DNA of 64,000 nt from Rhodothermales bacterium (GTDB lineage Bacteria > Bacteroidota > Rhodothermia > Rhodothermales > VXPQ01). Below, piece by piece: positions 40,018 to 58,345 of this stretch (the stretch's first letter is position 1; each line of letters starts with the position of its first letter). The position numbers were made by a program, and so were the translations under genes. Below the pieces are notes generated by a model. The model made no database searches, was not told the origin of the DNA, and was given only the letters and a program-made list of their open reading frames with translations. The stretch lies in NCBI GenBank assembly GCA_040904565.1, contig JBBDTI010000061.1, positions 42,477 to 106,476 on the forward strand, in the 5' to 3' direction.

Positions 40018-40477
40018 TGATGCCCTCCTAGACTGAAAACGCTGCTTCACCAAACGACGAAGCCTTCCCAAGATAGGGTGCGGGAATCCCGGATGTTACT
40101 CCGTCCGTATCGGTGTTCTTCGAACCCAACCCGGAGCGCTTTGAACATATCTGACGTGCCCCATTCGCTTTAAAGGGAACGGCTGGTCTAGCCTGCGCCA
40201 TCTGCGGGTGCTGCACTGGAGGTCCATGCCATAGCGTCCGGAGTGGTTGATCTGGTTTGAATGTGGCATACGAGCTGCCACCCTACATGGTAAGAGCGTG
40301 GGCCGGAAGTATATGTAACCGCTCGGCGCTCAGCGGCGCCGCTGGTAGTTCTTCGTTCGGTTTCAGCAATTTAGATGTCGTCGTCACTCAAGGTAAGATG
40401 CTCGTGCGCGTCCGCTGCAGTCGCTGGGCACTGAACTCTGCGCGAAGGCGGCTGATATTAGACCGGAAGTCATCCGC

Positions 40478-42125: not shown

Positions 42126-42214
42126 GGCGATCGTGGAATGCGCTTCGTCGAGAATCGATAGATAAGGAGTGGGAGGCCCTCCAGCGAACGTGATTGGACG
42201 GTTTCACCGGCCGG

Positions 42215-43408
42215 TCAGGGTTGATGTTCGAGCGGCTTCTTTCGACGTCCAACCTCTTCGATGAGGCAAGCAGCTGCCTCCGGACCGTCGAGCGCTTCCA
42301 TCTCTCGTTGAATCCGTCGGGCCCCCTGACGGTACCGTGGGTCGTCGAGCACGGCGCGGACAGCACGGCGAACGTCCGCTCTCTTCAGATCGGCGCGGCG
42401 CAGCGTCAATCCCGCGTGGAGGTCGGAAAACCGCTGCGCGTTCACCGGATGATCGGCCGCAAGGGGAACGAAGACGACCGGCACGCCGGAGCCGAGCATT
42501 GTCAGCGTCGATGTCAGGCCGCCGTGCAGTATGGCCGCGTCGACGTAGGTTGCAACCCGACTGAAGGGGAGATAGGGTTCGACGTGCACGCTCGGCGGCA
42601 GGTCCCCCAGGAGGGACGGATCTAGGTCGCGCCCTGCAGCAACGATGACATGCATCGACTCGTCACGCAAGCCTTCCACAAGTACGCGAAATAGATCGAT
42701 GTCGCGGTTGAACACCGAGCCCAGTGATATCAGCAGCGTCGGCGCTCCATCCAGATGCTCGAAATAGGCGGGCAGGCCGCTGTCGACGGTCTCGTCGTGG
42801 ACAACGGGACGGACTGAACGGGTGACAGCAGGCAGCAGCGGATCCGGCATCCGGTAGCTGGGCGGCACGAAGTCGAGTCGGAGGAACGCGAACAGCCGAC
42901 TCAGATCTTCGTCAGGCGGGAGCGCGAACGTTCTCCTCACGTCGCTCAACACCGGGCCAAGGGATGCCCGCAGCCAGACCATCGGAACGGTTACGATCCC
43001 GCTGATACCCAGCGTCACGTGAGGAATCCCGAGCGCCTCCGCAGCGACGTAGCCGCCGAACTCGAGCAGGTCGTGAATCACTACGTCGAACGGCCACTCC
43101 TCAGCAAGATCCACCAGATCACGGGCCATCGGGGGCGTACACTGGCGGACGAAAATGTCTTCCAGTAGAACGCGTCCTCGATCCTCATTCGGAACGGACC
43201 GAATTTCCGGGAACGCCTCTTCGTATGCGTCGGCGGACCAGTCGAGGCCGGCCGGGCAGCAGCGGAAGCCCGCCCCTTCTACAACCGGTGCGAAGGTGGC
43301 CGCGGTGGCGATGCGCACGTCATGTCCACGATCACAGAGGGCGCGCGCCTGCGGGGCGACCAGGTGGAAATGTGCCAGCGCCGGCTGCACGGTAAAGAGA
43401 CATCGCAT
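42215..43408 (-). CDS. GT1 glycosyltransferase (MGT/EryCIII-like natural-product type)
   Basis: N-terminal catalytic His (LAHFH), GHDVRIAT, SLGSVF, HGGLTST, PLAADHPVNA. Confidence 0.9.
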   Translation of the reverse strand: MRCLFTVQPALAHFHLVAPQARALCDRGHDVRIATAATFAPVVEGAGFRCCPAGLDWSADAYEEAFPEIRSVPNEDRGRVLLEDIFVRQCTPPMARDLVDLAEEWPFDVVIHDLLEFGGYVAAEALGIPHVTLGISGIVTVPMVWLRASLGPVLSDVRRTFALPPDEDLSRLFAFLRLDFVPPSYRMPDPLLPAVTRSVRPVVHDETVDSGLPAYFEHLDGAPTLLISLGSVFNRDIDLFRVLVEGLRDESMHVIVAAGRDLDPSLLGDLPPSVHVEPYLPFSRVATYVDAAILHGGLTSTLTMLGSGVPVVFVPLAADHPVNAQRFSDLHAGLTLRRADLKRADVRRAVRAVLDDPRYRQGARRIQREMEALDGPEAAACLIEEVGRRKKPLEHQP

Positions 43409-43432
43409 ACGAGGAACTGGTTTGGACGGGTG

Positions 43433-44242
43433 TCAGCCAGTACGGTAACGTGAAGGCGCAGCCTCATCAACGGCACCCGCTGTGGAGAGGTGAAGTCGGA
43501 CGGCTTCCAGACGATCGACATAGTCCCGGACCGGTTCAGGAAGGGCCCAGGTATCGAGGGCCCAGCCGACGTCGGGCCGTTGTTGGCGCAGCACGCTCGG
43601 AAAAAGCAGGCCGAGTCCGTGAAATCCGGGAACGAAGATGTAGTCCAGATCCAACGACGTGCCTTCAAGGAAGTCCTCCACCGCCGTCCACACCCCGTTG
43701 CGAGGGGTACCCTCTTCCACAGCATGAAACAGGTGGGCGTTGTAGCCGCCGGCTGCCTGAAGCGCCGCATCGCCAAGCCGAAGCCCTTTCTGCGCATATG
43801 GATGGCGATAGTCTGCCGGGATGGAGTCGGGATCGTAGTAGAGGTCGCGCCGACCGTACGGCCATGCCACGTCGTGAAGCATGACCAGGGGAAACGATCG
43901 CTCCGCCAATCGGGAGTCCGCTTCGATGCGCTTTAGTTCGTGAAAAACCGTGAACCAGTTGTGATCGCCGTCGATGAGTACCATGTCGTAAGCGGGTAGG
44001 CCGGGCAGGGCGTCCAGACTTCGACCCTGATGTACGACGAGCCGCGGGCCGTGCAGCTTCGTCCACAGCGGGACATCGAACTGCGGCGACGGGTCGATAG
44101 TGTGGAGCACCGCGTCGTGGCGATGGCAGAATCCGAGCAGGTGCCGAGTGTGCTCTCCGCGCTCAGCACCGATTTCGACGAGTACCCGCGGCCCAAACAG
44201 ACGCAGCAGCGGGTGTGTCAGTACGTCCCAGTAGGCGTGCAT
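43433..44242 (-). CDS. class I SAM-dependent methyltransferase (Methyltransf_24-like)
   Basis: VEIGAERG, IDGDHNWFTV, MLHDVAWPYGRRD, NGVWTAVEDFL; start trimmed to MHAYWD. Confidence 0.85.
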   Translation of the reverse strand: MHAYWDVLTHPLLRLFGPRVLVEIGAERGEHTRHLLGFCHRHDAVLHTIDPSPQFDVPLWTKLHGPRLVVHQGRSLDALPGLPAYDMVLIDGDHNWFTVFHELKRIEADSRLAERSFPLVMLHDVAWPYGRRDLYYDPDSIPADYRHPYAQKGLRLGDAALQAAGGYNAHLFHAVEEGTPRNGVWTAVEDFLEGTSLDLDYIFVPGFHGLGLLFPSVLRQQRPDVGWALDTWALPEPVRDYVDRLEAVRLHLSTAGAVDEAAPSRYRTG

Positions 44243-44511
44243 TCGATGTGCAACACTGGCGGAATGATGGCGCGGCGGGGGCGAGGAGGCGGGACGGCAA
44301 GAGCGTACCCTTGGAACCGGGTTAAGATAAGGCCGGGCGATTAGAATAGCAGGACCAGGATACGTCGCTTTGCGCAGCACCTGAGTTGCTCCCAGACGAG
44401 GCAGGGAGTACCTTGGCCACACGGAGTTCGGCGGCGATCGTATCGAGTAAATAGGGAGGTGACGTATGCACGAATCCGGACATCCAGCCAAACGAACGAG
44501 GAGCTGAGACG

Positions 44512-45444
44512 ATGAGCGCACGTTTCCCGATGGGCCATCCGTACGGGTGGTTTCACGCCGCCTTTTCCGACGAACTGATGCCGGGCGACGTAGTCCCCAA
44601 GAAGTACTTCGGGCGCGACCTCGTGCTTTTTCGTACGGAGAGTGGACAGGCCCGGGTGCTGGACGCCTTCTGCCCTCATCTCGGGGCACATCTGGGATAC
44701 GGTGGAACGGTCGAAGGCGACATCCTCGCGTGCCCGTTCCACTCCTGGCGCTTCGACGGCGAGGGCGTCCTCGTGGAGGTGCCGTACGCCAAGACCCAGC
44801 CGGATGTGCTCGGGCGCCGCTGTCTGAAGTCGTGGCCCGTCGTGGAGACCAATCGTTCCATCTACGTCTGGTATCATCCCCGCAATCAGCAGCCTGCGTT
44901 CGACGTCACGCACATGCCTGAATTGATGGAAGCGGGAGAGGAATGGACGGCGTTGATTACCCGGCAGTGGACTGTCCACTGCCACATTCAGGAGGCCCAT
45001 GAGAATATTCTCGATGCCGCGCACTTCAGATACGTCCACGGCGTGGACCCCGATTTGCAGGCCGACTTCACCGGTCACCAGAGCTATATCTCCATGGCGG
45101 CGAAGAAACCGGATGGAAACGGAGCCGCCACGATCACGGAGCACAACGGCCCGGGCCAGACCTGGTCTCGCTACACGGGGTTTCCGGAGTTTATCATGTT
45201 GAATCCGGTCACGCCGATTGACGACGAGATCGCGGAGTTTCACGTCGGTGTGGCTTTCAAACGTGTCATCGCCGACAAGATGCCGCAGGTGATCGATATG
45301 GTGCTGGAGAAAATCTGGGAGCAGATCGACAGCGACATCCCGATCTTCGAGCACAAGATCTACCGGACCAGCCCGCTTTACTGCGACGGGGACGGGCCGA
45401 TCGAGCCGTTTCGGCAGTGGTATGCGCAGTTCTACGCGGCGTAG
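44512..45444 (+). CDS. Rieske non-heme iron oxygenase (KshA-like)
   Basis: CPHLGAHL and CPFHSWRF Rieske ligands; ENILDAAHFRYVH Fe site; DIPIFEHK; GAGGAG RBS. Confidence 0.93.
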   Translation: MSARFPMGHPYGWFHAAFSDELMPGDVVPKKYFGRDLVLFRTESGQARVLDAFCPHLGAHLGYGGTVEGDILACPFHSWRFDGEGVLVEVPYAKTQPDVLGRRCLKSWPVVETNRSIYVWYHPRNQQPAFDVTHMPELMEAGEEWTALITRQWTVHCHIQEAHENILDAAHFRYVHGVDPDLQADFTGHQSYISMAAKKPDGNGAATITEHNGPGQTWSRYTGFPEFIMLNPVTPIDDEIAEFHVGVAFKRVIADKMPQVIDMVLEKIWEQIDSDIPIFEHKIYRTSPLYCDGDGPIEPFRQWYAQFYAA

Positions 45445-45453
45445 GGCCAGCCG

Positions 45454-47043
45454 TCACACGAGTTGCTGCGTGGGCTCCGGCAGCAGTGCCGCGCAGGCGT
45501 CGACGCGAGGCCCAAAGTGGTCGTGGATCTCCGTGATTTCGTGCTCGAGAACCTCCTCGCCCGGGCGTCTGCACGCGGCCTCGATGAGGGCTCGGAAGTA
45601 GTCGAACTCCGCCTGGGCAACCGCCCGCCCGTAGGCACGATACGCGGCCCCCAGATCGGTGAAGCCGGCGTGCTCGAGGCGAGGCACGAAGAGCCAAAGC
45701 GCCTCGGGCCGCGGGACGGCCCGAACCCGTTCGACGTAGGCGCGCCGAATGCCCTTGAAGAACCGGCGTACCTCGGCGTCGACGAAATCGTACTCGTATC
45801 GATAAAAGCATCCCGGGCGCTGCCGAAGCAGGCCGGCATCATCCAGGAGATCGTAGAACGCCGTTCCTCGCCGCGGGATCAGGGCGCCGGCGAAAACGGG
45901 GAAGTTTGCACTGCCGAGTTGATCCTGGATGCGTATCTGATCCAGCAGGTCCACGTGCTCGGCCGCTTCATCGAGGGTAATCCACGGGTCCCAGAAGATG
46001 ACATTCGTCTGGAAGTCGAGCGGGAGTTCGCGGGCGATCTCCACGGCGCGGAAGATGTCCGTCTGCTTGTACCCCTTGTTGTACAGCTTGAGCTGACGAG
46101 GCAGCATCGACTCCATCCCGAGCGAGATGTGACTCAGACCGACGTCGCAGAAATCGCGCAGGAGCTCGGAGCCTCTCACCACGTCGGCCACACGAAGCTC
46201 CACCCCCCAGTGAATATCGAGATCGCGCTCCTTCAGGCAGTCCAGAAAGGCCGCACACCACGCCCGCTCCCGTTTGGATGACAGGCCGAAATCGTCGTCG
46301 TATATCATGAACTCCGTGCTTCCGTTGTCGACGCAGTAGGCGATTTCGTCGACGACGTCCTCGGGCGCGCGCTGGCGAAGTATCGGGCCCAGTTTGAGGT
46401 CGTAGAACGGCACCATGGAACAGAAGGCGCACCGGCTCATGCAGCCTCGGCGCGTGACGATGGGCGTAACATCCCCCGATTCAGGCCACTGCCGTCGCGG
46501 CCAGGAAATGGTGGTGACATCCGTCAGAGCGGCTTCCGGATTCGAACGAATGGAATCCCCATCACGGTAGACGAGGTTGGGCACCTCTTCGACGGGAATA
46601 TCTCCTTCGAGATGTGCCACCAGGGCACGCAGCGCAGTCTCGCCCTCACGAACGATCACGTAGTCGACCTCGGGCCAAGCGCGAAGAATGTCCTCAGCGT
46701 GAAAGGTGGCCGTGTAGCCGCCGACGACGATGGGCCCGTCATACGCGAGGCGGAGCAGGGAAAGCGTATGGTGCGTCGGTTCCATCGTGACGTCGTACAG
46801 CGTGAAGCCGACGAGCGACGGGTTCTGCGCGTTGATCTTCGACGCGAGCATCAGCGGCGGTGTGCCTTCGTACTGTTCGTCGAACGTCACGACGGGGTAG
46901 CCGGCGTCTTCAAGCACGCCGGCGAGGTACATGATGCCGATGTTGGGCATCCTACCGAGGAAGCCCTGCACCGCATATCCCTCGCGTTGCTGCGCCGGTT
47001 CGGGCGCGACAGCCAGCACGACGGGATGGGGTTGAGAAGACAT
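45454..47043 (-). CDS. B12-binding radical SAM enzyme (class B methyltransferase-like)
   Basis: N-terminal cobalamin-binding domain (GIMYLAGVL, VVGGYTAT, VREGE); RGCMSRCAFC; DDDF. Confidence 0.92.
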   Translation of the reverse strand: MSSQPHPVVLAVAPEPAQQREGYAVQGFLGRMPNIGIMYLAGVLEDAGYPVVTFDEQYEGTPPLMLASKINAQNPSLVGFTLYDVTMEPTHHTLSLLRLAYDGPIVVGGYTATFHAEDILRAWPEVDYVIVREGETALRALVAHLEGDIPVEEVPNLVYRDGDSIRSNPEAALTDVTTISWPRRQWPESGDVTPIVTRRGCMSRCAFCSMVPFYDLKLGPILRQRAPEDVVDEIAYCVDNGSTEFMIYDDDFGLSSKRERAWCAAFLDCLKERDLDIHWGVELRVADVVRGSELLRDFCDVGLSHISLGMESMLPRQLKLYNKGYKQTDIFRAVEIARELPLDFQTNVIFWDPWITLDEAAEHVDLLDQIRIQDQLGSANFPVFAGALIPRRGTAFYDLLDDAGLLRQRPGCFYRYEYDFVDAEVRRFFKGIRRAYVERVRAVPRPEALWLFVPRLEHAGFTDLGAAYRAYGRAVAQAEFDYFRALIEAACRRPGEEVLEHEITEIHDHFGPRVDACAALLPEPTQQLV

Positions 47044-47063
47044 GGGACGGGACTTTGAGAGTG

Positions 47064-47960
47064 CTACGTGGGCTGGATGGGTGAAGCCGGCTCGTTGAAG
47101 CTGCGCAGCCAGGCCTCGCCGGTCTCCAGAAAGAGAGTCTTAACAAGGGCGACCGCTTCCGCCTCCGTCATGTCCCGATCCCGGGCCAGCCGGCGAGCGA
47201 GGTGCGTGTGCAGCTCGACGAGGGCACGCGGCAAGCCCATGGTAGGTGCGTGCAGCTTCAAAAGCTCGTTGGCGCCGTGAATGCGGTACGTCACCAGAGG
47301 CACGGGGAGCATGCCGAGGGGTCGCCGCGCGGCCATGCACGCCCACATCAACCAGTCCGACGTGCCCCTCAGGGCAGGCTCAAACCCACCCTGCTCCTGC
47401 AGCGCAGCCTTGCGCGCGACGACACCTGACATACAGAAGAGGCATCCGGCAACAAAGTCGCCCAGGCCGAGCGCCGCCGCACGATCGGCGTCCAGTCGAT
47501 AGATCATCCTGGCCCAGTCTTCGAGAAAAGGCATGGCCGGCACCCCGTCGAAAAAGAGCTCCGGCCAACAGCCGACCGCATCCAGACGTGGACGTTCGCT
47601 GATGAATTCGGCCTGCAGAGCGAGCTTGTCGGGCATCCAGACATCATCCTGATCGAGGAACGCAATCCAGGGGGCGCGGGCGGCGGCGACGCCAGCATTC
47701 CGCGAAGCGGCCACGCGGCGGCGGGCGCCCCCCTCGTGATGAATGAGCACTGCCCGCTGCGACTGGTCCTGTATCCACGAGCGCGCAATGTCGGCGGAGG
47801 CGTCGGATGATCCGTCGTCGATGATGCAGCACTCCCATCCGGGGAACGACTGCGCCGTGATGCTTGCGAGAGCTTCCTCAAGATAGTTGGCGCCATCGTG
47901 CACGGGCACGACCACCGTGAAGAAGGGAGCGGGAAGAGAGCGGTTCGCCTGCATGCGCAT
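47064..47960 (-). CDS. GT2 glycosyltransferase
   Basis: VVVPVHD, IIDDGSSD, SRNAG, FLDQDD (DxD), YRIH. Confidence 0.92.
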   Translation of the reverse strand: MRMQANRSLPAPFFTVVVPVHDGANYLEEALASITAQSFPGWECCIIDDGSSDASADIARSWIQDQSQRAVLIHHEGGARRRVAASRNAGVAAARAPWIAFLDQDDVWMPDKLALQAEFISERPRLDAVGCWPELFFDGVPAMPFLEDWARMIYRLDADRAAALGLGDFVAGCLFCMSGVVARKAALQEQGGFEPALRGTSDWLMWACMAARRPLGMLPVPLVTYRIHGANELLKLHAPTMGLPRALVELHTHLARRLARDRDMTEAEAVALVKTLFLETGEAWLRSFNEPASPIQPT

Positions 47961-47973
47961 CGAGGGGCGGTCG

Positions 47974-48903
47974 TTAGAAGGACGCTTTCCAGAAGGACTT
48001 CAGTTCCGTGCGCATCATGCGCATGCAGAGATCGCACTCGGTAGCGTACCGCTCCCCTTCAACTTCACGCGCCACCGCGCGGCGGCCTTCTTCCGTAAGC
48101 CCATCGAGAAATCCACGGCGTCGCATTTTCTGGAACAGCGGGGAGGCTTCCAGGCGGTTGAAGGCCTCGGGGAGCGACGCGGCACCATCGGTTGCCGGAA
48201 CGGAAAATGGCGACGCCTCTACGGCCGTGGACCAGCAGCACCCATGCAGTGCGGCATCGTCATCGATGAAGACATTCCCCAGCACGCATCCGCGAGGGAT
48301 ACGATCGAGGTCCGCGGCATCCTGCACCGTCACCTCTTCGGCATCGAGCACGGAGTGGACGGCGTTGCCTACACTCACGGTGCGCATCGGATAGATGTGC
48401 GTGGCGAGCACTTTCATGCCGCCGAGCTGCGTGATGAGTGACTCCTTTTCTTCCTCCCTCGTGTACGCAATTTCGAACACCAGCTTGATGCCGTGCTGCA
48501 CGGCACTCATGGCGGCGTGACGGTAGTGCTCGAGCGTAAGGAATTCGAGGTGGTACGCGTCGTAGCTGAGAATGAGCAGGTCGAGGCCCTTTACCCGGTC
48601 AAGAAAGCGGTCGGCCGACGCCATTCTGGACGCCCACACTGGCGCGCTCACAATGGCGCTCAGGAGGCCCGCCTCGTCGCAGGCTTCAATGCCGGCGCGG
48701 ATCAGGTGCGGGCTCAGCGAAGGCTCGCCGCCGGCCATGAGGATGACGTCATACACGTCGGGATCCACACTGCGAATGAGACCCGCGAGATCCTCCTGCG
48801 TGAGATGCAGATCCTCTCCCTTGAAATCCTCGCTGAAACCGATCGAACAGTGCTTGCACTTGAGCGGGCACCGCTTGTTTATGTTGATCGAAACGGTTCG
48901 CAT
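47974..48903 (-). CDS. radical SAM protein with C-terminal Cys cluster (twitch-like)
   Basis: CPLKCKHC, GGEP, SYDAYH, GC..HGCC..ECDLC. Confidence 0.9.
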   Translation of the reverse strand: MRTVSININKRCPLKCKHCSIGFSEDFKGEDLHLTQEDLAGLIRSVDPDVYDVILMAGGEPSLSPHLIRAGIEACDEAGLLSAIVSAPVWASRMASADRFLDRVKGLDLLILSYDAYHLEFLTLEHYRHAAMSAVQHGIKLVFEIAYTREEEKESLITQLGGMKVLATHIYPMRTVSVGNAVHSVLDAEEVTVQDAADLDRIPRGCVLGNVFIDDDAALHGCCWSTAVEASPFSVPATDGAASLPEAFNRLEASPLFQKMRRRGFLDGLTEEGRRAVAREVEGERYATECDLCMRMMRTELKSFWKASF

Positions 48904-48956: not shown

Positions 48957-50210
48957 TCAGGCGAGGAAGCCATGTACGACGTCGGCGGCGGACGGCAGGG
49001 CGGCCACCTGCTTAAGGTATCCCTCTTGCCGATCCGCCATGGCCTGCCGGGCGTCGGCATCGTCAAGCAGCAGGCGGCATCGCGCCAGCACGACCGCCTC
49101 GTCGAGCAGTTCGACGCGATCGAGGGCTTCGCAGTACGGATTGTTTTCCAGCAGCGGATGCAGGAACTCGTGATAACCCAGCGGCCAGAGAGAAAACGCG
49201 TAGATCGGAAGGGCGTCTTTCAACAGGCTCTCGGCTCGCGGCGTGAGACGTCCTCCGAAGACCGCATGCGCGTCATCGATCGTGTTCAGCGGCCTCGAAT
49301 TCTCCAGTACGAGAACAGGAACGCGCAGATGGAAGGCACGCGTGATGGTCGTCGCCGAGATATTGGCCGAAAGGAAGAGGTCCGTGCACCGTAGGAGCTC
49401 GTTAAATGCTGTGTGGCCGAGCGGTGCCAGCCAGTGATAGTTCTCACCCAGGCTCGAAACGAGTGGGTACGGCTCGGGACCCACGTGGACGAGGTGCACG
49501 TCCGGGCCGAGCTGCCGGAAGTACTCACCGATGAGCGCGGGCAGCACGTCCGCGAGGCGCTTCCGGTCGGCAGGCCCGTCCGCATGCTGCTGCCACGGGG
49601 CCGTACAGAAGAGGACCAGGCGGTCGCGATCGGGAATGCACAACCGGCTGCGCCAGTTCGATGCAGTGGAAGGCACTGTCAGCGTCGGCAGACATGCGAA
49701 TTTGCCGGGGCGCTGATCGCCAGGCGCCATCGGCACGGGAATCAATCGATGATCGATCCGCTCAAACTCCTCCAGACGCTGCGCAATGTCACCATAGATG
49801 AGCGAGCCCTCAGTGCCGCCGTAGAGATCGATCCGATGTCCTGTCGACTGATAGTCCCAGGTGTCCAATGACATGACGGCACTGTCGTACTCCAGAAGAA
49901 AAGACGTGTCGCTAATGCCGCGATAGTGGAGGTAGTTGGCCGTGTTGAAATAGTCGAAATAGATGACGGTCGTCGGCTTGAGGCGGCGCATGCACGTATC
50001 CAGCATCAGCCGGACAAGGCCATCGAGATGATCGACCACGTAGTCGAATGAGAAGCCGGCGGCCTGGAAAATTGGGCGCAGTGCATCGTGGATAAGGAGA
50101 AACACCTCATCACCGGCGGCCCGGAGATCCTGCGCGACGCGAAGGGCCATGGCCGCACGTCCCCACGAATGGGGATGCAGGGCGACAAGGAGATGACTAT
50201 TCGTACGCAT
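48957..50210 (-). CDS. GT-B-like protein (DUF6365-like), paralog 2
   Basis: Shares VLFCTAxWQ, VHLVHVGP, DLxxSANxSATT, WPxGY..LxPLLxxNPYC with 51068-52285; family name from recollection only. Confidence 0.7.
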   Translation of the reverse strand: MRTNSHLLVALHPHSWGRAAMALRVAQDLRAAGDEVFLLIHDALRPIFQAAGFSFDYVVDHLDGLVRLMLDTCMRRLKPTTVIYFDYFNTANYLHYRGISDTSFLLEYDSAVMSLDTWDYQSTGHRIDLYGGTEGSLIYGDIAQRLEEFERIDHRLIPVPMAPGDQRPGKFACLPTLTVPSTASNWRSRLCIPDRDRLVLFCTAPWQQHADGPADRKRLADVLPALIGEYFRQLGPDVHLVHVGPEPYPLVSSLGENYHWLAPLGHTAFNELLRCTDLFLSANISATTITRAFHLRVPVLVLENSRPLNTIDDAHAVFGGRLTPRAESLLKDALPIYAFSLWPLGYHEFLHPLLENNPYCEALDRVELLDEAVVLARCRLLLDDADARQAMADRQEGYLKQVAALPSAADVVHGFLA

Positions 50211-50227: not shown

Positions 50228-51058
50228 CTAGCGGCCGTTTGCATGGATGTCGTCGATCTCGCCATCAACGGGCCGCGGCCGGTCCGCATCGGCGTGCCCG
50301 TTCCCAGAGCGGCCGAACAGGGCAGCGAGGCCTTCACGCGTGCCGAGATCAGTGAAACGACCTTCAGGGAAATGAACGGCCCGAACGGAAAGCCCGCGGC
50401 GGCAGGCGTCATCAAAGACCGCTCCCAGAATCACCTCCTCGCTGGCCGAATCCATGCAGTGCTGGCGGAGGAGCTCTGTAAAGCGAGGAGTCCACGCAGC
50501 AAGCGCCCAGGTATTGAAGTGTTTCGGTTGCCGCGGCTTGTCGAAAACGGCTCCGACCGTGCCGTCGGCCCTCACGGCCACGGGTCCCAGTTCGTTCGGC
50601 CGCCGCGTGGGAAAGACGCCCAGAACAAGATCCGCCTCGCAGCGGACGAGCTCATCATAGACCTGCTGGAGAGCATCCTGAGGTTCAAAGAGCGTGTCGG
50701 GCATCGCCATGCAGCAGTCGGTCTCGAAAGGAGCCGCCCAACGACAGGCCTGCTCGACCGCATGGGCAAGACCCAGCGGTTTCTCCTGCACGACGTAGGC
50801 AAGCTGCAGGCCGTGGGCCGAGCCGTCGCCGAGATACCGCATGATGTCGGCCTTGGCGTCGGAAACCACAACGATGCAGCGGGTAGCGTCCGCCTGACGT
50901 GCAGCCTGAAGAACATGTTCGATGACAAGCTGCGGTCGTACCTCGCGTCCATCAACGCTCCACGCGTAGCTCACCGGAAGGAGTTCTTTCGGGTAGCGAA
51001 ACGGGCGCAGCCGGGAGCTGAGTCCGGCGGCAGGAACGATGCCTATCACGTGACGCAT
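50228..51058 (-). CDS. sugar-1-phosphate nucleotidyltransferase (RmlA-like)
   Basis: GIVPAAGLSSRLRP..PKELLPV, YVVQEKPLGLAHAV, MPD, DKP, DLGT. Confidence 0.9.
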   Translation of the reverse strand: MRHVIGIVPAAGLSSRLRPFRYPKELLPVSYAWSVDGREVRPQLVIEHVLQAARQADATRCIVVVSDAKADIMRYLGDGSAHGLQLAYVVQEKPLGLAHAVEQACRWAAPFETDCCMAMPDTLFEPQDALQQVYDELVRCEADLVLGVFPTRRPNELGPVAVRADGTVGAVFDKPRQPKHFNTWALAAWTPRFTELLRQHCMDSASEEVILGAVFDDACRRGLSVRAVHFPEGRFTDLGTREGLAALFGRSGNGHADADRPRPVDGEIDDIHANGR

Positions 51059-51067
51059 GAAATCTCC

Positions 51068-52285
51068 TCAAACGTATTCCGAGATAATGTTCGATACAAG
51101 ATGACCTGCCGTGGGAAGTTGGCGTGTCTGATCGACGTACTCCCGCTGCCGTTCGAGATGACGCGCGCGGGTATCCCCATCGAAAAGGAGGCCGTTGAGC
51201 GAGGCGAGGACTGTCTCCTCGTCGAAGATCTCAAGGAGCGGAACGACGTCGCAGTACGGGTTGCCATCGAGCAGCGGCTGGAGGAACACCTGATAACCCA
51301 CGGGCCACATGTAGAACGGGTAGATCGGCGCGGCCTCGCGAATCCATGCGGCCAGCGTATCGGACACCTGCCGATCTCCCAACTCGCCCAGGTCCGTCAG
51401 CGCCGTCGTATTGGTCAACACCACGGAGGGCACGTCGGCAACGAGGGCTCTGGCGATCGTCGTCGCCGACACATTTGCGCTGACAAGCAGATCCATCGAC
51501 GCCAGTAGCAGCGCAAACTTGTCAGGGGGCAGAGAGGGCAGCCAGTGGTAGCGATCACCCAGCTCCGCGGGGAAGGCGGCGGGACCGACGTGAACCAGGT
51601 GCACGGGCCCGTCGAGCCGTGCGACGTACTGTGCGATGAGCACTGGCAGCAAGCGGGCCAGCCGGTTTCCGTGGTCACTTGTGAAACGCGCGTGCTGCCA
51701 CGCAGCAGTACAGAACAGCACCACCGGCTCGTCTGGAGGGATGCCAAGATCCCGTCGAATGTGGCGCCGCACCTTCTTGTGGACGTTTTCAGGGACCGGC
51801 AGCGTGCAGTACTTGTCCTTCGTGTCCCCTGGTGGAGCGATGGGGACCGGAATCAGCCGGTAGTCGAGCAGAGCCGACCAGTCATCAAAATCACGGCGGC
51901 CGTTCCCAAAAACGTCGATGGTGGTCCCGCTGCGCCGCATGTCCCATGTATCGATCATGCCGACCGGAACGTCGAGCTGCGTGAGAAACGAAGGGTCCAG
52001 CCGAGCGCGCTCGAACGCCAGGTCGGTCGTGAAGTAGTCGGAAAGGATGACGGAGTCCGGCTTCGACTTCTGAACGCGCGTGAGCAAAATCGCTTTCAGG
52101 AGTCCGAGCGCGTGGTCAGTGACCTTCATGTGCCGAAACGGCGTGTCCACAAGGAGCGGAAGGGCCGACTCGTGCACGAGGAAGTTGCACTCGTGTCCGG
52201 CCTCGTGCAGCTCCCGGGCGACACGGATTCCGAGAATCGTCTCGCCGTAGCCTTTCGCGCTGAGCGCGACGAACAGATACTTCAT
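51068..52285 (-). CDS. GT-B-like protein (DUF6365-like), paralog 1
   Basis: MKYLFVALSAKGYGETILG..GHECNFL GT-B-type N-terminus; conserved blocks shared with 48957-50210. Confidence 0.7.
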   Translation of the reverse strand: MKYLFVALSAKGYGETILGIRVARELHEAGHECNFLVHESALPLLVDTPFRHMKVTDHALGLLKAILLTRVQKSKPDSVILSDYFTTDLAFERARLDPSFLTQLDVPVGMIDTWDMRRSGTTIDVFGNGRRDFDDWSALLDYRLIPVPIAPPGDTKDKYCTLPVPENVHKKVRRHIRRDLGIPPDEPVVLFCTAAWQHARFTSDHGNRLARLLPVLIAQYVARLDGPVHLVHVGPAAFPAELGDRYHWLPSLPPDKFALLLASMDLLVSANVSATTIARALVADVPSVVLTNTTALTDLGELGDRQVSDTLAAWIREAAPIYPFYMWPVGYQVFLQPLLDGNPYCDVVPLLEIFDEETVLASLNGLLFDGDTRARHLERQREYVDQTRQLPTAGHLVSNIISEYV

Positions 52286-52298
52286 ATCGGGTCGGCTT

Positions 52299-53360
52299 TC
52301 AGTGCACGGCGGCCGGGGCAAACCCGGCCGGCGAAGCGCCGGCAAGGACGTCCGGTTCGAGCGGAGGTTCTTTGAAGTGAAGCGCCAGCCGGACGTTGAT
52401 GCGGAGCAGTACGTCGGGTCGATGCGCGAAGTCGGTCAGGCAGCGCCGGCCTTCGGGCGTGGACAGGACCGAGAAGCAGAGATCACACGGGCCCGTGAAT
52501 CCGTCTCGATCCATCACGGCTGTCAGCTCCGGATACTCGACCAACAGCTGGGCGACGCCCCTGGGGCCGTGCGTGCGCAGGTACTGGTACGGCACGTTCA
52601 GCCGTGCCTGCTCCATGATGGCCGCAAACGACTGCTGCCGGAGGTTTCCCAGGTAGTACGGCAGGTCGGACATGTCCCCGTGCGCGCCGACCTTCCCCGC
52701 GTGGCAGGCAAAGACGTAGCCGTCCGGATTGATGATCGGCGTCTCCAGCCAGCACGTCGATTCGTAGTTCTCCGGAACGGGCCTCACCATCGGATCCTGG
52801 TCCTTTATCGCACGCCGAATAAACCGCGTCGGGATGACACGCGACTCATAGAAGCGGACGCGGTCCCCATAGCGTTCGTAGTTCGCGCGCACCTCGGCGC
52901 GCTCCTTCTCCGACGAATAGGTAATGCACAGTGTGATGTCCGGAATCGAAAGGATGTCGGCCGCGGCAATGACGTTGTGGATGTACTCGTACGGGATCCG
53001 CTTTTGATGGAAGGAGTCGGTACTCAAGTAGAGATGCTCGACGCCCCGGAGCTGCCGCAGCGTTTCCACACCGGTCGGCACGGATGTCGCCCAGTACGAG
53101 CTCGTGAACACCCAGCTCGGCACGCCGAGATCGGCAGCGGCGTGCGTGCCCTGTTTGAGCACGTCGAACCGTTCAAACGGCTCGCCCCCCGTAAAAATGA
53201 CGGCGGGGATTCCATATCGACAGGCCTGCTGCACCCAGGCCACCAGCTCGCCAGCATTCGTTTCTCGATCCCGCTTCGATCCGATGAATCCACAGTGCGC
53301 ACAACCAACGTGGCACCCCTCTGTAACACTGACGAGTATGGACGTAAACGAAGGGTTCAT
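52299..53360 (-). CDS. radical SAM protein with C-terminal Cys cluster (YydG/twitch-like)
   Basis: CHVGCAHC, FTGGEPF, TSSYWATS, STDSFH, INPDGYVFACH, LGNL, PCDLC; ATGA overlap with the upstream gene. Confidence 0.92.
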   Translation of the reverse strand: MNPSFTSILVSVTEGCHVGCAHCGFIGSKRDRETNAGELVAWVQQACRYGIPAVIFTGGEPFERFDVLKQGTHAAADLGVPSWVFTSSYWATSVPTGVETLRQLRGVEHLYLSTDSFHQKRIPYEYIHNVIAAADILSIPDITLCITYSSEKERAEVRANYERYGDRVRFYESRVIPTRFIRRAIKDQDPMVRPVPENYESTCWLETPIINPDGYVFACHAGKVGAHGDMSDLPYYLGNLRQQSFAAIMEQARLNVPYQYLRTHGPRGVAQLLVEYPELTAVMDRDGFTGPCDLCFSVLSTPEGRRCLTDFAHRPDVLLRINVRLALHFKEPPLEPDVLAGASPAGFAPAAVH

Positions 53361-54292
53361 GAGAGCGGCACCAGTCCTTCGACGAGATTTAACGGGACGG
53401 CGTCCGCACTGAACTCCTCCCAACCAAAGTAATCGATGTATTCAGGGTAGACTCCTCCGCAGATCGAACGGACGCTACAGTCACTGCAGGGCGCTCCGAA
53501 TACGCTCATCTTATCCCTCATGAAGTTGTCGTAGCTCTCGAGAACCTGGCCGCGAACGAGGAGCTTGATGTGGCGATACTCGTTCGTCAGGTGCAGCTGC
53601 TCGCGGCCACCGTCGATGCTGCAGTAGGGAAAGCCCTCGAGCGTCACGGTCCGACCGCACGCGATCGCATGATCGACGGCCGGATAAAGATGCCGTCGAA
53701 TCGCTGCCAGATCGGGCATGATGCGGGCCCGAGAGAAACGCGCGCTGCCGACCGGGTGCAGATTCGAGAAGTTGATATGATGGACGCCGAGGTCGCAGGC
53801 CAGCTCGGAGATCGCCGTGAGACGATCGAGGTTTTGCCGGGTGATCACCGTATTGGTGCGCACGTGGGCGCCATGGTCCTTCGCGTTGCGAATGCCTTCG
53901 ATGGTCTTCGCAAATCCCCCCGGACTGAACGTCTGGCTGTCGTGGTACTCCGCTTCGTCGCCGTGGAGCGAGACGATGAACTTGGTCACGTTTCGCTCGA
54001 CAAGGGTCTTGACGAAACGCTCCCGGGCGAGACGGATGCCGTTCGTCTGGAGATGGACCTCCGAATATCCAAGCTCACGGATGTAGTCGAGGACCTCCAC
54101 GAAGTGCGGGTGAATGGTCGGCTCTCCCCCGTGGAGGTTCACGGCGCCGTACCCCTCGTGCTGATGGTCCTCAAGAAACGAAAGGACCTCATCGTAGCGT
54201 ACGCTGTCCGTCGTATACAACGGCGATCCCACGACGCAAAAGGTGCACTCACTATTACAGAGATCGGTCAGGTGTATGCTCAGGCACTTCAT
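53357..54292 (-). CDS. radical SAM protein, HxsC-like
   Basis: CNSECTFC, HGGEPT, QTNG, SLHG..HD, EGFPYC, C-terminal CSDCSVRSICGGVYPEY...GWEEF. Confidence 0.92.
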   Translation of the reverse strand: MKCLSIHLTDLCNSECTFCVVGSPLYTTDSVRYDEVLSFLEDHQHEGYGAVNLHGGEPTIHPHFVEVLDYIRELGYSEVHLQTNGIRLARERFVKTLVERNVTKFIVSLHGDEAEYHDSQTFSPGGFAKTIEGIRNAKDHGAHVRTNTVITRQNLDRLTAISELACDLGVHHINFSNLHPVGSARFSRARIMPDLAAIRRHLYPAVDHAIACGRTVTLEGFPYCSIDGGREQLHLTNEYRHIKLLVRGQVLESYDNFMRDKMSVFGAPCSDCSVRSICGGVYPEYIDYFGWEEFSADAVPLNLVEGLVPLS

Positions 54293-54472: not shown

Positions 54473-54706
54473 CTATTCGTACCCTCCATCATCCGCTTGG
54501 AGATCGCCAATCGATTCTTCAATCGCGCGGATCTCCGTGTCGCGAAGACTGAAGAGGTCCTGAAACTTCGTGGGTTCGGAAATGAGCGCCTTGGCAAAGC
54601 GTTCATCCGTGACCGCAAGACGCAGGGCGTCGTTTGCATCGAGCGCGCCGGAAGCAGGGCGATTTTCTTTTAGCGTCTCGGGAATCCTTTTCTTTTTTGA
54701 AGCCAT
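54473..54706 (-). CDS. candidate RiPP precursor peptide (NHLP-clan-like leader, tail DDGGYE)
   Basis: 77 aa; GAGG RBS; DALRLAVTDERFAKALISEP..F.L...EIRAI motif shared with both halves of the upstream gene. Confidence 0.8.
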   Translation of the reverse strand: MASKKKRIPETLKENRPASGALDANDALRLAVTDERFAKALISEPTKFQDLFSLRDTEIRAIEESIGDLQADDGGYE

Positions 54707-54751
54707 GAACGTACCTCAAGCACGTTGATTTGGGAGATTACGGGTGGTGAC

Positions 54752-55183
54752 TCAGCTGGCGTACGCCGCTGTATCGGAAAGGTCGGCCAATGACTCGACC
54801 TTGCGAATGGCCTCTACCTGATTCTTCGTCAGGTTGAAGGGTCCTTCGAAGTCGTCTGGGTGCGCCAGCACGGCTTGAGCGAATTCATTGTCTGCGGCAG
54901 CGAGCCGCAGTACGTCCTGCAAGTCGAGTACGACTTTTTCGTCGGTTGTCTGGTTTTCCATAAGTTTATTCAGTGATGTGAGCGCTTCTTTTGAGGTCTG
55001 CTCCCCTGCCGCCCGCACGGCATTCACCTGGTCGGGCTTCAGATTGAACGGACGGACGAAGTGCTCGGGTTGCTGGAGTAACGTGCGCGCAAATGCGTCA
55101 TCCGCGCCAGCCAATCGAAGAGCATCCTTGAAACTGAGTTGGATGGGCTCCTGCGTAGATCGGCCGTACACGTCGGGTGCCAT
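54752..55183 (-). CDS. candidate RiPP precursor or accessory protein with tandem-duplicated NHLP-clan-like domain (tail DTAAYAS)
   Basis: DALRLAGADDAFARTLLQQPEHFVRPFNLKPDQVNAVR and DVLRLAAADNEFAQAVLAHPDDFEGPFNLTKNQVEAIR. Confidence 0.8.
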   Translation of the reverse strand: MAPDVYGRSTQEPIQLSFKDALRLAGADDAFARTLLQQPEHFVRPFNLKPDQVNAVRAAGEQTSKEALTSLNKLMENQTTDEKVVLDLQDVLRLAAADNEFAQAVLAHPDDFEGPFNLTKNQVEAIRKVESLADLSDTAAYAS

Positions 55184-56051
55184 GATAGATCAGTTGGTGT
55201 GTGGAGGAAGACTCGCTTCATCGCCGACCGGCCCATTTACATGAACCGGATCACGTGAGAGGACTCAGGTGAAACGGCTAACATTATACAACACGGCCGA
55301 TACGAAGCTATGTGCTCGCATACAGGACACCCGTGAGCATCAGTACTGCTTTACTGAATCAAGCGTCACGAACTGCTCTATCCGCGAGCAGGCGCTAGAG
55401 AAATGGCGTAACGCGCCATCCAGACATCGAGGGTCGAGAACATCTGGTTCATCCCAGGAAAAGCGGGTACAAACAACCCTCGATTGAAATGATAGGCCGG
55501 GTTTGGTTGATTGTCAAGGGATCGGCATTCGCTGATAGCAGAATCGACTTCACATACTGGATGCCGACGCGCGCAGCACCTCGTTAACGTGCTCCAGAAT
55601 CCACAGATACCCGGCGTCGGGCACCGCCTCGGCCCTACAGTGTGGGATGGTATCACAGATGTGGCGCCCCATGGCGGGCGAAACGCTACGGTCGAGCCGG
55701 CACGACCACGAATGGACGGGTACGCTGATCTCATCCGGCGGAAATCCCCACGGGCGTCCATGATTGGCCCTCAGGTCATCCACCATTCGGTGCGACCCGC
55801 TGCGCACGGCCGAAGAGAAAATCGAGTAAGGCCTGTCGAACGAGAACGCTTCTAGAAACACCTTCTTCTGCACCACCCTCGTCGAGGGCAACTTTGACAT
55901 CCTCGGGAAGGCTTATCGATACCGTTTCACGTATTACCTACCTCGAGTTGCTGGCTTGCTGTGTCAATTATCAACACAGCGCCGAAAAGAAAGGTTGCCG
56001 CGAGCACGGCGCCTCCCGGCGGAGAAAAACGGGCCCTGCAATCGAGGCGCC

Positions 56052-57414: not shown

Positions 57415-58345
57415 TACCAGTCCCGATTTATGTGTAAAAGCGGCTTTCCGCTAGGATTACATTTTGGTCATGCGGCTCTGGCGATCGGTTCGGGCTCTTC
57501 GAAGGATCTCTTCCATTCGTAGAAGCCGTCCATGTTGAAGTACCGCCTCCCGGTGGACCACTCTTCGTGTTGTTCGGCGCAGCGGGCTCCGATGAGCCGC
57601 CAGGCCGATCGCACGTTCGGGAAGATGCGGATCACCTTCTCACGCCGCCGTATTTCCTCGATATAGCGCTCGACGCTGTTGGTGGTACGAAGCCTGCGCC
57701 GGTACTTCTCCGGCAGCGTAAGAACCGCTGTCGCATCCTCAAAGCCGTTCTCGAGCTTCTCGAGGGCCCGGTCAGCCTTGCCGCCGAGGGCCTCCTGCGC
57801 CTCCGTGAGCGCCTCGCGTGCAGCCGCCGGGGAGTCGGCCTCCAGGATGGCATCGAGCCACTCGTGAACGTCGTCTCGATGGGTCTCGGGCGTAGCGTCG
57901 CTCACGTTGCGTCGGAAGTGGGCCTGGCACCGCTGCCAGACCGCTCCGGGGAAGCGTTCGCGCAGCGCCTGGGTGAGCCCTTCGTGGGCGTCGCTCGCGG
58001 CGAACTCCACCCCGCGCAGGCCGCGGTCTCGGAGCTGCTGCAGGAAGTCCGCCCAGGCCTCGCCGGTCTCCTTGAAGGACAGATCGATGCCGAGGATCTC
58101 ACGGTAGCCCCCTTCATTGACGCCGATCGCGAGCATCACCGTCGTCGACCGCACCGCGCCCTGACGTCTCACCTTTACGTGCATCGCATCTACCATCAGG
58201 AACGGATACGTCGTGGCGCCCAGCGGCCGCTCCGCCCAGGCCTCCACCCGTGCGTCGAGCTGCTTGCAGAGCCGGCTCACGGTCGACTTCGAGAAGGCCC
58301 GTCCGCAGAGCTTCTCGGTGATCTTCTTCACCCGCCGCGTCGAGA
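57415..58345 (-). mobile_element. IS256 family element, 5'-truncated
   Basis: Transposase remnant plus an IRR-like end (minus strand TTTTACACATAAATCGGGAC near 57420-57439); left end and N-terminus missing; bounds approximate. Confidence 0.8.
57468..58331 (-). pseudogene. IS256 family transposase, N-terminally truncated
   Basis: STRRVKKITEKLCG, VDAMHVKVR, SDAHEGL, WQRCQAHFRRN, LRTTNSVER..EIRRR. Confidence 0.9.

Follow-up and report, generated by a model that had tools for sequence, protein, structure and literature searches.

Two small proteins with a C-terminal tyrosine, encoded beside radical SAM and sugar-transfer enzymes, as candidate precursors of a RiPP-like pathway

Here, we describe two small proteins, A and B, which head a 14-gene operon of radical SAM and sugar-transfer enzymes in a 64-kb stretch of DNA, in the following called the window. 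We think it rather likely that both are substrates of a RiPP-like pathway which has spread horizontally and has so far not been described, and in which the tail around their C-terminal tyrosine undergoes radical chemistry and glycosylation. The gene set is found in several bacterial phyla, and its product is probably an as yet undescribed peptide decorated with sugar. Direct support comes from the repeats in A and B, the conservation of the tyrosine, the gene neighbourhood, the GT-B fold of the DUF6365 proteins and the wide distribution of the enzymes. The tyrosine is suggested as the modification site because it is the only conserved nucleophile and because glycosyltransferase-fold genes are conserved as well. 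Literature searches on NHLP or RiPP in combination with radical SAM or YydG, tyrosine and glycosyltransferase returned no description of this system within the main texts covered.

Protein A (143 aa, 54752-55183) contains two copies of a leader-like domain and protein B (77 aa, 54473-54706) contains one; all window features given in this text lie on the minus strand. One motif of approximately 41 residues occurs at residues 16-56 (55016-55138) and 86-126 (54806-54928) of A, and at residues 22-62 (54521-54643) of B. These three copies had been claimed in a preliminary description of the DNA, and the observation of repeats and tails is confirmed as real. The pattern given there, however, finds no match, since its first spacing is one residue too short ('L..D' in place of 'L...D'). 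When all six frames of the window are translated and searched with the corrected pattern, these three copies in A and B are the only matches. BLASTP aligns B separately with both copies in A. The alignment with the second copy (57 columns, 40% identity, E 5e-11) continues through the tail to the tyrosine; that with the first copy covers 41 columns (39% identity, E 3e-8). Between the two copies of A, 21 of 42 positions agree, a number counted by eye on the translation and not a program result, since the self-BLAST of whole A printed the self-hit alone and no repeat alignment.

The tail of A ends in SDTAAYAS with Tyr141 (54761-54763) as the third residue from the end; the only other tyrosine of A is Tyr6. 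B ends in the unstructured stretch ADDGGYE (54476-54496), and its single tyrosine, Tyr76 (54479-54481), is the penultimate residue. Neither protein contains cysteine. A and B indeed share the tail likeness S[IL][GA]DL..D..[GA][GA]Y, but across the homologues only its tyrosine is invariant. The idea that the aligned acidic tail as a whole forms the core is not supported. In the structure model of B (pLDDT 75.8), helices span residues 24-33, 35-43, 45-48 and 56-71 and are followed by a coil tail; the ES[IL].DL stretch falls within the last domain helix, so that most of the proposed core belongs to helix 4 of the predicted leader, and approximately the last six to seven residues are left as the unstructured part.

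The earlier suggestion that the leader resembles the NHLP clan is borne out as a resemblance. NF038399 (Os1348 family of the NHLP clan) is the best NCBIfam match of both A (29.5 bits, two stretches) and B (16.1 bits) and the best or second-best match of all ten homologues tested (13.7-30.7 bits). All of these scores are below the curated cut-off of 40 bits and thus point to likeness, not to membership. Among 48,161 chains, the structure search placed Os1348 (PDB 6LK7) in the top row (Z 3.3, rmsd 3.6, 49 residues), tied with unrelated rows and not significant alone; 6LK7 is also a weak profile match (E 0.41). Foldseek gave no match for the B model at E <= 0.001, and TIGR03793 (leader_NHLP) and PF14407 (Frankia_peptide) matched neither A nor B at E <= 1. 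In the NHLP leader/Frankia_peptide test, one homologue (P0015) stays at 13.2 bits, with the cut-off at 50.9, and a structure row of the Atlas for Frankia_peptide (TM 0.49) is a lead only. Taken together, the domain appears to be a remote, sub-cut-off relative of the Os1348 family. Os1348 and its kin are likewise small helical proteins heading a modification operon. According to the available sections of PMC7726476, the operon of Pseudomonas sp. Os17 encodes a GNAT protein, a HEXXH peptidase-like protein and a SagB-type dehydrogenase, and, unlike the window, those sections list no radical SAM enzyme, DUF6365 protein or nucleotidyltransferase. An assignment as lanthipeptide precursor (cinnamycin/duramycin, DurB) was rejected: PF19398 scores 22.8 against 26.6 bits and NF033431 21.7 against 35 bits, both matches span only approximately 25 leader residues of A, and A and B are free of cysteine.

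A homologue search of 1.84 billion representatives gave 15 matches, 13 of which are credible relatives. Of the remaining two, one is the query and the other is P0010, a eukaryote-like repeat protein (1437 aa, nine matching stretches) discarded as a false positive. The profile search returned 21 matches, including both window proteins. In contrast to the leader, the spacer behind it is hypervariable in length and composition, and still the tail tyrosine is kept in all sequences of the successive alignments (8/8, 10/10 and 16/16). Among the 16 aligned single-domain homologues, no other position outside the leader is invariant, and in nine of them this residue is the sole tyrosine of the whole protein. 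It is preceded by G, D or E in 15 and followed by D or E in 12 of these sequences. The preliminary description had staked its reading on the conservation of this residue, and indeed all but one of the 22 short family proteins (21) have it, P0027 being the short homologue without it; three others extend 13-21 residues further beyond the tyrosine. Closer to home, a word search for close relatives of A found A itself only, the comparison of A and B with 60 relatives of the genome gave noise only (E >= 0.04), and the profile scan of genome contigs with the precursor alignment gave no confirmed locus.

A complication arises from relatives with three domains (184-244 aa). They are the closest to A, with 35-41% identity and E-values of 1e-24 to 1e-26, and have no tyrosine within their last 50 residues, neither in the six representatives nor in four near-identical members of one cluster. 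One of them and an enzyme orthologue 68% identical to that of the window come from records with the same longest-contig size of 32,534 bp. The domain can therefore exist without a tyrosine tail, and it is less certain for A than for B, the best candidate precursor, that the protein serves as a substrate. It is conceivable, if on the doubtful side, that B is the sole true precursor and A a degenerate or regulatory paralogue which stems from the tail-less three-domain subfamily and owes its B-like tail to chance or recombination. Apart from the kinship itself, the VESLADL stretch of A fits this view, as it matches the start of the inter-domain linker in the three-domain proteins. On the other hand, the tyrosine of A falls into the invariant alignment column, two-domain proteins with a tyrosine tail do exist (P0009, P0012 and P0016), and A has tyrosine at just one other position.

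Downstream of the two small genes follow the enzymes of the operon. The first is a radical SAM protein of 311 aa (53357-54292; PF04055, E 1.2e-20) of HxsC/BlsE/PqqE-like type, which belongs to the conserved core. It stays below every curated cut-off, its best NCBIfam matches being HxsC4 (120.7 bits, cut-off 500) and HxsC (118.9 bits, cut-off 267.9), and among solved structures BlsE comes closest (E 2.3e-13). Since BlsE acts on a sugar nucleoside, some of the radical steps may take place on a sugar and not on a peptide. The second core enzyme is a YydG-like radical SAM/SPASM protein with an ORF of 374 aa (52299-53423); its start is probably at 53360 instead of the ORF start, as the gene call of a public collection has 353 aa. 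It scores 53.3 bits with TIGR04078 (YydG; cut-off 300) and matches PDB 8AI3 over its full length in a profile comparison (E 3.6e-12), while a single-sequence search against YydG found nothing. Counted as sequence clusters, its family comprises at least 150 relatives, which besides this genome come from records of Acidobacteriota, Pseudomonadota, Myxococcota and Actinomycetota; cultured carriers include strains of Caballeronia, Pyxidicoccus and Microbispora. The 115 sequences aligned have seven invariant cysteines and a conserved C-terminal helix; the alignment with YydG is too weak in the C-terminal half to place the catalytic cysteine. Viral contigs searched with the enzyme alignment and plasmids searched by tblastn gave nothing. 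The core is continued by a first DUF6365 protein, (a) (51068-52345; PF19892, E 6.2e-69), and followed by a 276-aa nucleotidyltransferase-like protein of sugar-1-phosphate type (50228-51058; PF00483, E 7.3e-13; RmlA-long 62 bits, below the cut-off), by a paralogue of the former, DUF6365 (b) (48957-50210; PF19892, E 4.3e-64; 38% identical to (a)), and by a second YydG-like radical SAM enzyme of 309 aa (47974-48903; TIGR04078, 68.1 bits against 300).

The remaining genes are a GT2 (47064-47960), a B12-binding radical SAM enzyme (45454-47043), two overlapping ORFs with approximate boundaries, one of them with Methyltransf_24 (43433-45354), an EryCIII/macrolide-GT-like GT1 (42215-43408) and a TylF-type O-methyltransferase (41328-42125). 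All of these (41328-47960) are window-specific tailoring genes and have no counterpart in L014 or L017. With five or six additional genes for sugar or methyl tailoring, the window is the most decorated of the loci seen.

That the radical SAM context of A and B is not peculiar to this genome, as anticipated earlier, is evident from its conservation across metagenome loci. The small gene stands beside maturase genes in the window and in four distinct metagenome loci. In the longer ones, it adjoins radical SAM orthologues together with DUF6365, while two short loci carry only the SPASM enzyme and/or the nucleotidyltransferase. The orthologue of the 374-aa enzyme adjoins the precursor in L014/L015, L017 and L018 (47-52% identity), and that of the 311-aa enzyme is found in L014 (60%) and L017 (55%). 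DUF6365 orthologues, 34-39% identical to (a), are present in two copies in L014, in two in L015, where the second is broken by the contig end, and in one in L017. A nucleotidyltransferase orthologue (45-49%) directly follows the precursor in L016 and L018, and the 309-aa enzyme has an orthologue in L014 only (41%). In addition, six pairs of precursor and enzyme records share an equally long longest contig, Erythrobacter sp. JK5 (family member WP_212449793.1) among them. L014 and L017 also carry PS_pyruv_trans, PGA_cap, S8 and ThiF genes, for which the window has no equivalents. RiPP precursors are generally recognised as small genes whose linkage to maturase genes is conserved in distant genomes, and by a conserved recognition part together with a modification site; both features are found here, the latter in the form of invariant leader columns and the tyrosine, separated by a variable spacer.

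Co-folding with a radical SAM enzyme, as had been proposed as a check, turned out in favour of the leader and gave nothing for the tail. In the complex model, the C-terminal helix (residues 337-356) of the YydG-like 374-aa enzyme docks on the leader with a score of 0.67 (three runs: 0.67, 0.02 and 0.69, i.e. one of the three failed), against 0.01 for the best control. The leader domain alone is engaged, and no confident contact falls on the tail. In the calibration of the tool, 58 of 80 solved complexes attained its mark, as did 2 of 110 mismatched pairs, counts that hold only roughly here because we used our own alignments; agreement between runs was at least 0% of contacts and the pLDDT of the partner at least 60. 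The docking helix carries the motif I..RL.L..GE.P, conserved in the 115 sequences.

A modified protein need not be processed further, and A and B could be modified and yet never cleaved, the product being the whole glycosylated small protein. We hold this to be unlikely. It would agree with the window's operon, in which no protease gene is visible, with the folded leader domain of the model, and with the related Os1348, which according to the available part of PMC7726476 is a stable, crystallised dimer. Against it stand a subtilase (Peptidase_S8) gene in L017, two genes from the precursor on the opposite strand, and the spacer, which is unconserved as at leader-core junctions. Quite improbable is a role of A and B as helical adaptors or scaffolds which are no substrates and recruit or regulate enzymes acting on nucleotide sugars: the three-domain homologues without a tyrosine tail, the sugar-nucleoside decarboxylase BlsE as nearest solved relative of the 311-aa enzyme, the wealth of sugar enzymes in the operon and a docking model that touches the leader domain only would all suit it, but an invariant tyrosine past a hypervariable spacer in 16 out of 16 single-domain proteins is hard to explain this way, and the enzyme linked most tightly to the small gene resembles the peptide epimerase YydG most.

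DUF6365 belongs to the conserved gene set and is a predicted sugar-transferring enzyme. The model of DUF6365 (a) (pLDDT 78.6, from an alignment of five rows) has at least 500 PDB matches at E <= 0.001 in Foldseek. Its top structural matches are natural-product GT1 enzymes, namely the elaiophylin GT, VinC, SpnP and EryCIII (probability 1.00, TM 0.52-0.57). These matches show a GT-B fold with two Rossmann domains and make the protein a predicted glycosyltransferase. Polyubiquitin matches in the PDB sequence search were treated as an artefact of repeated chains, since no single stretch passes. DUF6365 was absent from 300 other genomes of the phylum, the scan of the genome contigs with DUF6365 (a) gave no confirmed locus, and the main texts covered on DUF6365 (PF19892) yielded no description of this system.

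From these components, the following pathway can be envisaged. The substrate would consist of one (B) or two (A) four-helix leader domains of a remote Os1348/NHLP/LigA type and a short floppy tail, in which nothing is conserved but [G/D/E]-Tyr-[D/E/x], placed at the C-terminus or close to it. According to the model, the YydG-like 374-aa enzyme would grip the leader by its own C-terminal helix, with no separate RRE domain, and may remove a hydrogen atom at or beside the tyrosine of the tail; by analogy to YydG, this could be the C-alpha hydrogen, leading to epimerisation or a cross-link. A second conserved radical step, with the tyrosine or the sugar as its target, presumably falls to the 311-aa enzyme. 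The nucleotidyltransferase would provide an NDP-sugar, which the two putative GT-B enzymes of DUF6365 type might add to the tyrosine phenol or to a hydroxyl created on the tyrosine. In the window, GT2, GT1, the TylF-type O-methyltransferase, the B12-radical SAM enzyme and another methyltransferase may then extend and methylate the glycan or the peptide. A point against this pathway is that the window's operon shows neither a protease nor an exporter gene.

To our knowledge, the yyd operon includes neither a glycosyltransferase nor a nucleotidyltransferase partner. The epipeptide system (YydF/YydG; TIGR04078; PDB 8AI1-8AI6) is otherwise comparable in its radical SAM enzyme: YydG models match the 374-aa enzyme (53 bits) and the 309-aa enzyme (68 bits) from end to end, far below the 300-bit cut-off of TIGR04078, and with the 8AI3 match indicating remote homology only. 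YydG and the window enzymes alike combine a radical SAM cluster with a Cys-rich auxiliary region and have no RRE domain. The precursor YydF, however, is unrelated to A and B.

In mycofactocin, the sugar is attached to a tyrosine-derived phenol. The likeness to the window lies in a ribosomal peptide with a C-terminal tyrosine and a radical SAM/SPASM maturase (MftA/MftC/MftF; as far as covered by the available sections of PMC3023750 and PMC7491314), and in a later glycosylation with methylated sugars, which the accessible part of PMC7491314 describes for mycofactocin. MftC (TIGR03962), in turn, gives 66.5 bits with the 311-aa enzyme against a cut-off of 265, MftF (TIGR03965) gives 51.3 bits with the GT2 against 280, and no counterparts of MftB, MftD and MftE were seen in the window operon. 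Moreover, the tyrosine of the window family is usually penultimate and not last, and its leader is a folded domain.

Proteusins combine an NHLP leader with a radical SAM epimerase and B12-radical SAM C-methyltransferases. In the window operon, too, a helical leader of NHLP type occurs together with radical SAM enzymes and a B12-radical SAM protein. In contrast to proteusins, A and B have no TIGR03793 match (E <= 1), the proposed core comprises a few residues instead of a long peptide, and the epimerase-like enzymes are YydG-like and probably not PoyD-like. The antiphage system HXS (HxsA-D; in the parts of PMC13128918 available) is touched by the sub-cut-off matches of the 311-aa enzyme to HxsC4 and HxsC, its best in NCBIfam, but A and B are free of His-Xaa-Ser repeats and the operon has no HxsB or HxsD.

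A more far-reaching reading may tentatively be put forward, which we regard as possible at best. A new RiPP class in at least five phyla would use an NHLP-like leader gripped by the C-terminal helix of the enzyme, with no RRE; only the last two to three residues, the tyrosine and an acidic residue, would become a glycosylated and methylated, tyrosine-derived small molecule similar to mycofactocin or PQQ and not a peptide antibiotic, and the tail-less multi-domain relatives would serve as enzyme-gathering scaffolds. If the proposed pathway is true, it defines a widespread, unstudied peptide modification and gives DUF6365 its first functional context, as the GT-fold enzyme of a RiPP-like pathway. 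A single tyrosine would then be a testable and very small substrate site for two uncharacterised radical SAM enzymes, and leader recognition without the usual RRE domain would be suggested. With respect to expression, the gap between B and the first enzyme gene shows neither an RNA structure signal (z -0.8) nor a terminator-like site. Approximately 300 nt upstream of A, sigma-70-like hexamers with 11 of 12 matches are located at 55489-55517, a promoter candidate by consensus match only, with one such site found against 0.6 expected.

The two putative precursor genes, A (54752-55183, minus strand, 143 aa, two leader-like domains) and B (54473-54706, minus strand, 77 aa, one such domain), are separated by 45 nt and head a long row of co-directional genes. 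In the preliminary description, a common leader motif was reported twice in A and once in B. The copies stand, the spacing of the pattern does not: written with 'L..D' it matches nothing, because 'L...D' is needed. In this corrected form the motif occurs at A 16-56, A 86-126 and B 22-62 and nowhere else in a six-frame translation of the window, and when B was searched against the whole 4.0-Mb genome in six frames, the same three places came up and no others. BLASTP aligns B with the second copy in A at 40% identity (E 5e-11), and with the first at 39% (E 3e-8); the former alignment continues along the tail as far as the Tyr and thus bears out that the tails of A and B align. Likewise, the absence of Cys was verified in both proteins. 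B has Y76 as its only Tyr; the Tyr residues of A are Y6 and Y141. With the spacing mended, the earlier observation on both genes is confirmed. A pair of sigma-70-like hexamers is found about 300 nt upstream of A.

An exhaustive phmmer search of 1.84 billion representatives with A gave 15 matches at E <=0.001, one of them A itself; a profile search, run over 5.8 billion clusters, added up to 21 hits. Of the 15, P0010 was rejected as a family member, being a eukaryote-like repeat protein. The family falls into two groups: short one- or two-domain proteins (59-143 aa), and three-domain proteins of 184-244 aa. The short group comprises 22 distinct proteins, including A, B and the genes of two metagenome loci, L016 and L018. 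The tail Tyr, proposed earlier as the modified residue, is kept at the same aligned place in 21 of these 22, the exception being P0027, which ends without Tyr. It falls among the last five residues in 17 proteins; three carry 13-21 residues beyond it, and the L016 frame continues past it. In a 16-row alignment of single-domain members (two rows, P0025 and P0032, stem from one 90% cluster), six leader residues and the tail Tyr are invariant; Tyr is the sole invariant nucleophile, and the segment that separates it from the leader is variable both in length and in composition. The tail Tyr is the only Tyr of the protein in 9 of 16 rows, is preceded by G, D or E in 15 and followed by D or E in 12. 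For the short proteins this goes against the refuting outcome named in the preliminary description, a tail Tyr not conserved in homologues. Conservation of the tail Tyr is confined to the short proteins: throughout the three-domain group (six representatives and, from one cluster, four near-identical sequences) the last 50 residues are free of Tyr. These proteins (P0002-P0007 and P0028-P0031, from other metagenomes) share the leader-like domain, and each copy is followed by a conserved helix (..AL.KV.EL..).

A is closest to this tail-less group (phmmer, 35-41% identity, E 1e-24 to 1e-26), and its 'VESLADL' is the counterpart of the start of the inter-domain linker there, which makes A a less certain candidate substrate than B. 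The alternative that A is a non-substrate draws on the same kinship, and has to be set beside the presence of Y141 in an aligned tail. In another metagenome, P0011 (183 aa) has two leader domains and, after them, a Pro-, Thr- and Tyr-rich tail of about 90 residues in which 'TPY/APY' motifs recur and which ends in ...APYTQ; it may represent a multi-Tyr substrate variant.

For the leader domain, a resemblance to the NHLP clan had been proposed. The HMM check agrees in rank and falls short in score: NF038399 ('Os1348 family NHLP clan protein') is the top NCBIfam match for A (29.5 bits, split over two stretches) and for B (16.1 bits), below its cut-off of 40. It was matched by all 10 homologues tested (13.7-30.7 bits), as top row in nine and as second for P0009. 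No Pfam model matched A or B over its cut-off, the sole notable row being the duramycin leader over about 25 leader residues of A (22.8 bits, cut-off 26.6). Against PDB sequences, the family profile gave weak rows (E 0.4-0.7) for Os1348 (6LK7), nitrile hydratase alpha and SonA/LigA-domain RiPP precursors. The AlphaFold model of B, built from the 16-row alignment, has helices at 24-33, 35-43, 45-48 and 56-71 and a coil tail (pLDDT 75.8). Foldseek found no match to it; VIA-align over 48,161 chains ranked 6LK7 first (Z 3.3, rmsd 3.6, 49 residues) and SonA third (Z 3.2), both low values tied with unrelated rows, and the ESM Atlas returned LigA and Frankia_peptide clusters with scores below 0.9, to be read as leads only. 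Taken together, these lines, each weak and only in part independent, favour an NHLP/LigA/Os1348 kind of helical leader, but every membership test by score fails. Os1348 itself is described as an 85-aa crystallised dimer at the head of a GNAT/HEXXH/SagB-type operon (PMC7726476), an enzyme set unlike the one in the window.

The genes 3' of B are tightly packed, all on the minus strand: a 311-aa radical SAM enzyme, a radical SAM/SPASM enzyme (374-aa ORF, called as 353 aa in the public collection), a DUF6365 protein, a sugar-1-phosphate nucleotidyltransferase-like protein, a second DUF6365 protein, a second YydG-like radical SAM enzyme of 309 aa, a GT2 and a B12-binding radical SAM. Two ORFs follow at 43433-45354 (minus strand), of 337 aa (no family) and 418 aa (Methyltransf_24, residues 171-273), which have about 350 nt in common, read in different frames, and whose gene boundaries are provisional; then come a GT1 of the EryCIII/macrolide type and a TylF-type O-methyltransferase, both on the minus strand. 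No curated equivalog covers any core enzyme of the operon. The family of the 374-aa enzyme gives a full-length alignment to the peptide epimerase YydG (PDB 8AI3, E 3.6e-12); among 115 sequences, C37, C41, C44 and Cys 224, 240, 313 and 316 are kept at 99-100%, as is, by conservation, a segment I..RL.L..GE.P near the C-terminus. For the 311-aa enzyme, BlsE (E 2.3e-13) is the closest relative of solved structure, followed by PqqE and SkfB, and its top NCBIfam rows, HxsC4 and HxsC, are below cut-offs; HxsC chemistry is itself still unsettled, as far as PMC13128918 describes it. The DUF6365 model (pLDDT 78.6, from a 5-row alignment) resembles GT-B natural-product glycosyltransferases (probability 1.00, TM 0.52-0.57), namely elaiophylin GT, VinC, SpnP, EryCIII, CalG3 and plant phenol UGTs.

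Co-folding of B with the 374-aa enzyme scored 0.67 (runs 0.67, 0.02 and 0.69), the best control 0.01. The alignments were custom-built; 58 of 80 solved complexes pass the tool's mark, as do 2 of 110 mismatched pairs, a calibration that is approximate here. Between runs, at least 0% of contacts are shared, and partner pLDDT is at least 60. The confident contacts run between the conserved C-terminal helix of the enzyme (residues 337-356) and leader residues 24-32, 38-42 and 57-69; the tail takes part in none. The model lends support to the idea that the enzyme may recognise the leader through its own C-terminus, and placement of the Tyr is outside its reach.

A/B-type small proteins were not found in 60 relatives of the genome, nor DUF6365 in 300 further genomes of the phylum. 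A metagenome scan with the precursor alignment found five loci, four of them distinct. L014 (identical match L015) encodes a radical SAM, the precursor (...GADYD), two DUF6365, a radical SAM, PS_pyruv_trans, a radical SAM and PGA_cap; L017 a DUF6365, a radical SAM, a radical SAM/SPASM, the precursor (...AIYFG) and PS_pyruv_trans, with an NTP_transf_3 protein, a subtilase and a ThiF-like protein on the other strand; L018 the end of a radical SAM/SPASM gene, the precursor (...AADYY) and a nucleotidyltransferase; and L016 a precursor (...AADYD) in frame into a nucleotidyltransferase. By BLASTP, orthologues of the 311-aa enzyme (60% in L014, 55% in L017), the 374-aa enzyme (47-52% in L014, L015, L017 and L018), DUF6365 (34-39%), the nucleotidyltransferase (45-49% in L016 and L018) and the 309-aa enzyme (41%, L014 only) are present. 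Judged by locus composition and this orthology, the conserved core is the precursor, the YydG-like SPASM enzyme, the 311-aa radical SAM and DUF6365, often with the nucleotidyltransferase. Compared with these loci, the GT2, GT1, TylF, B12-radical SAM and methyltransferase genes occur in the window only; L014 and L017 each carry a pyruvyl-transferase-like gene, the two being orthologous to each other, with none in the window. At L016:1729-2754, a TGG (Trp) codon at the stop position of the other loci yields a 341-aa fusion ORF, which may be either a genuine fusion or the result of a sequencing error.

The 374-aa enzyme reaches further: a profile search with it found at least 150 clusters at E <=1e-20, and the 120 matches listed all have E <1e-109. 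The records that carry names are from, among others, Caballeronia, Bradyrhizobium, Erythrobacter sp. JK5, Pyxidicoccus, Streptosporangium, Microbispora and Acidobacteriota/Vicinamibacterales MAGs. In six pairs of a precursor-family protein and an enzyme orthologue the longest contigs are equal in size (e.g., a 3,340,457-bp Erythrobacter record), one pair joining a three-domain protein and an enzyme 68% identical to the 374-aa enzyme. This suggests that the paired genes share a contig, with no adjacency implied.

From these parts we infer a RiPP-like pathway, chemical steps included, in which radical SAM chemistry and glycosylation would meet at a [G/D/E]-Tyr-[D/E] C-terminus. The partners kept across loci are a pair of radical SAM enzymes, of which one is peptide-epimerase-like, together with one or two GT-B proteins and often an NDP-sugar-forming enzyme; the additional genes of the window would serve glycan extension and methylation. 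At L017:12374-15873 (minus strand), subtilase (Peptidase_S8) and ThiF-like genes adjoin the cluster on the opposite strand and are candidates for leader removal or C-terminal activation there. Neither has a counterpart in the window; an alternative is that the product is an uncleaved modified protein. That A and B are adaptor proteins for a sugar pathway would suit the sugar-related genes and the leader-only contacts of the docking model, and would have to account for the invariant Tyr. As a class, the RiPP-like pathway falls within known radical-SAM RiPP pathways with NHLP-like leaders, as a variant. No curated family covers its core parts. In the literature searched (supplements and subscription journals lay outside), no mention of DUF6365 or PF19892 was found, and combined-topic searches returned only reviews, mycofactocin papers and unrelated RiPP work, with nothing on this system.

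About 2.3 kb upstream of the cluster sits an N-terminally truncated transposase ORF of the Mutator family (57468-58331, minus strand, profile positions 120-378 of 379). It fits the absence of the cluster in relatives and suggests a gain by transfer. Just past the cluster, on the same strand, lies a hybrid sensor kinase/response regulator of 1444 aa (35737-40071, minus strand) with Reg_prop beta-propeller repeats, Y_Y_Y and an AraC-type HTH.
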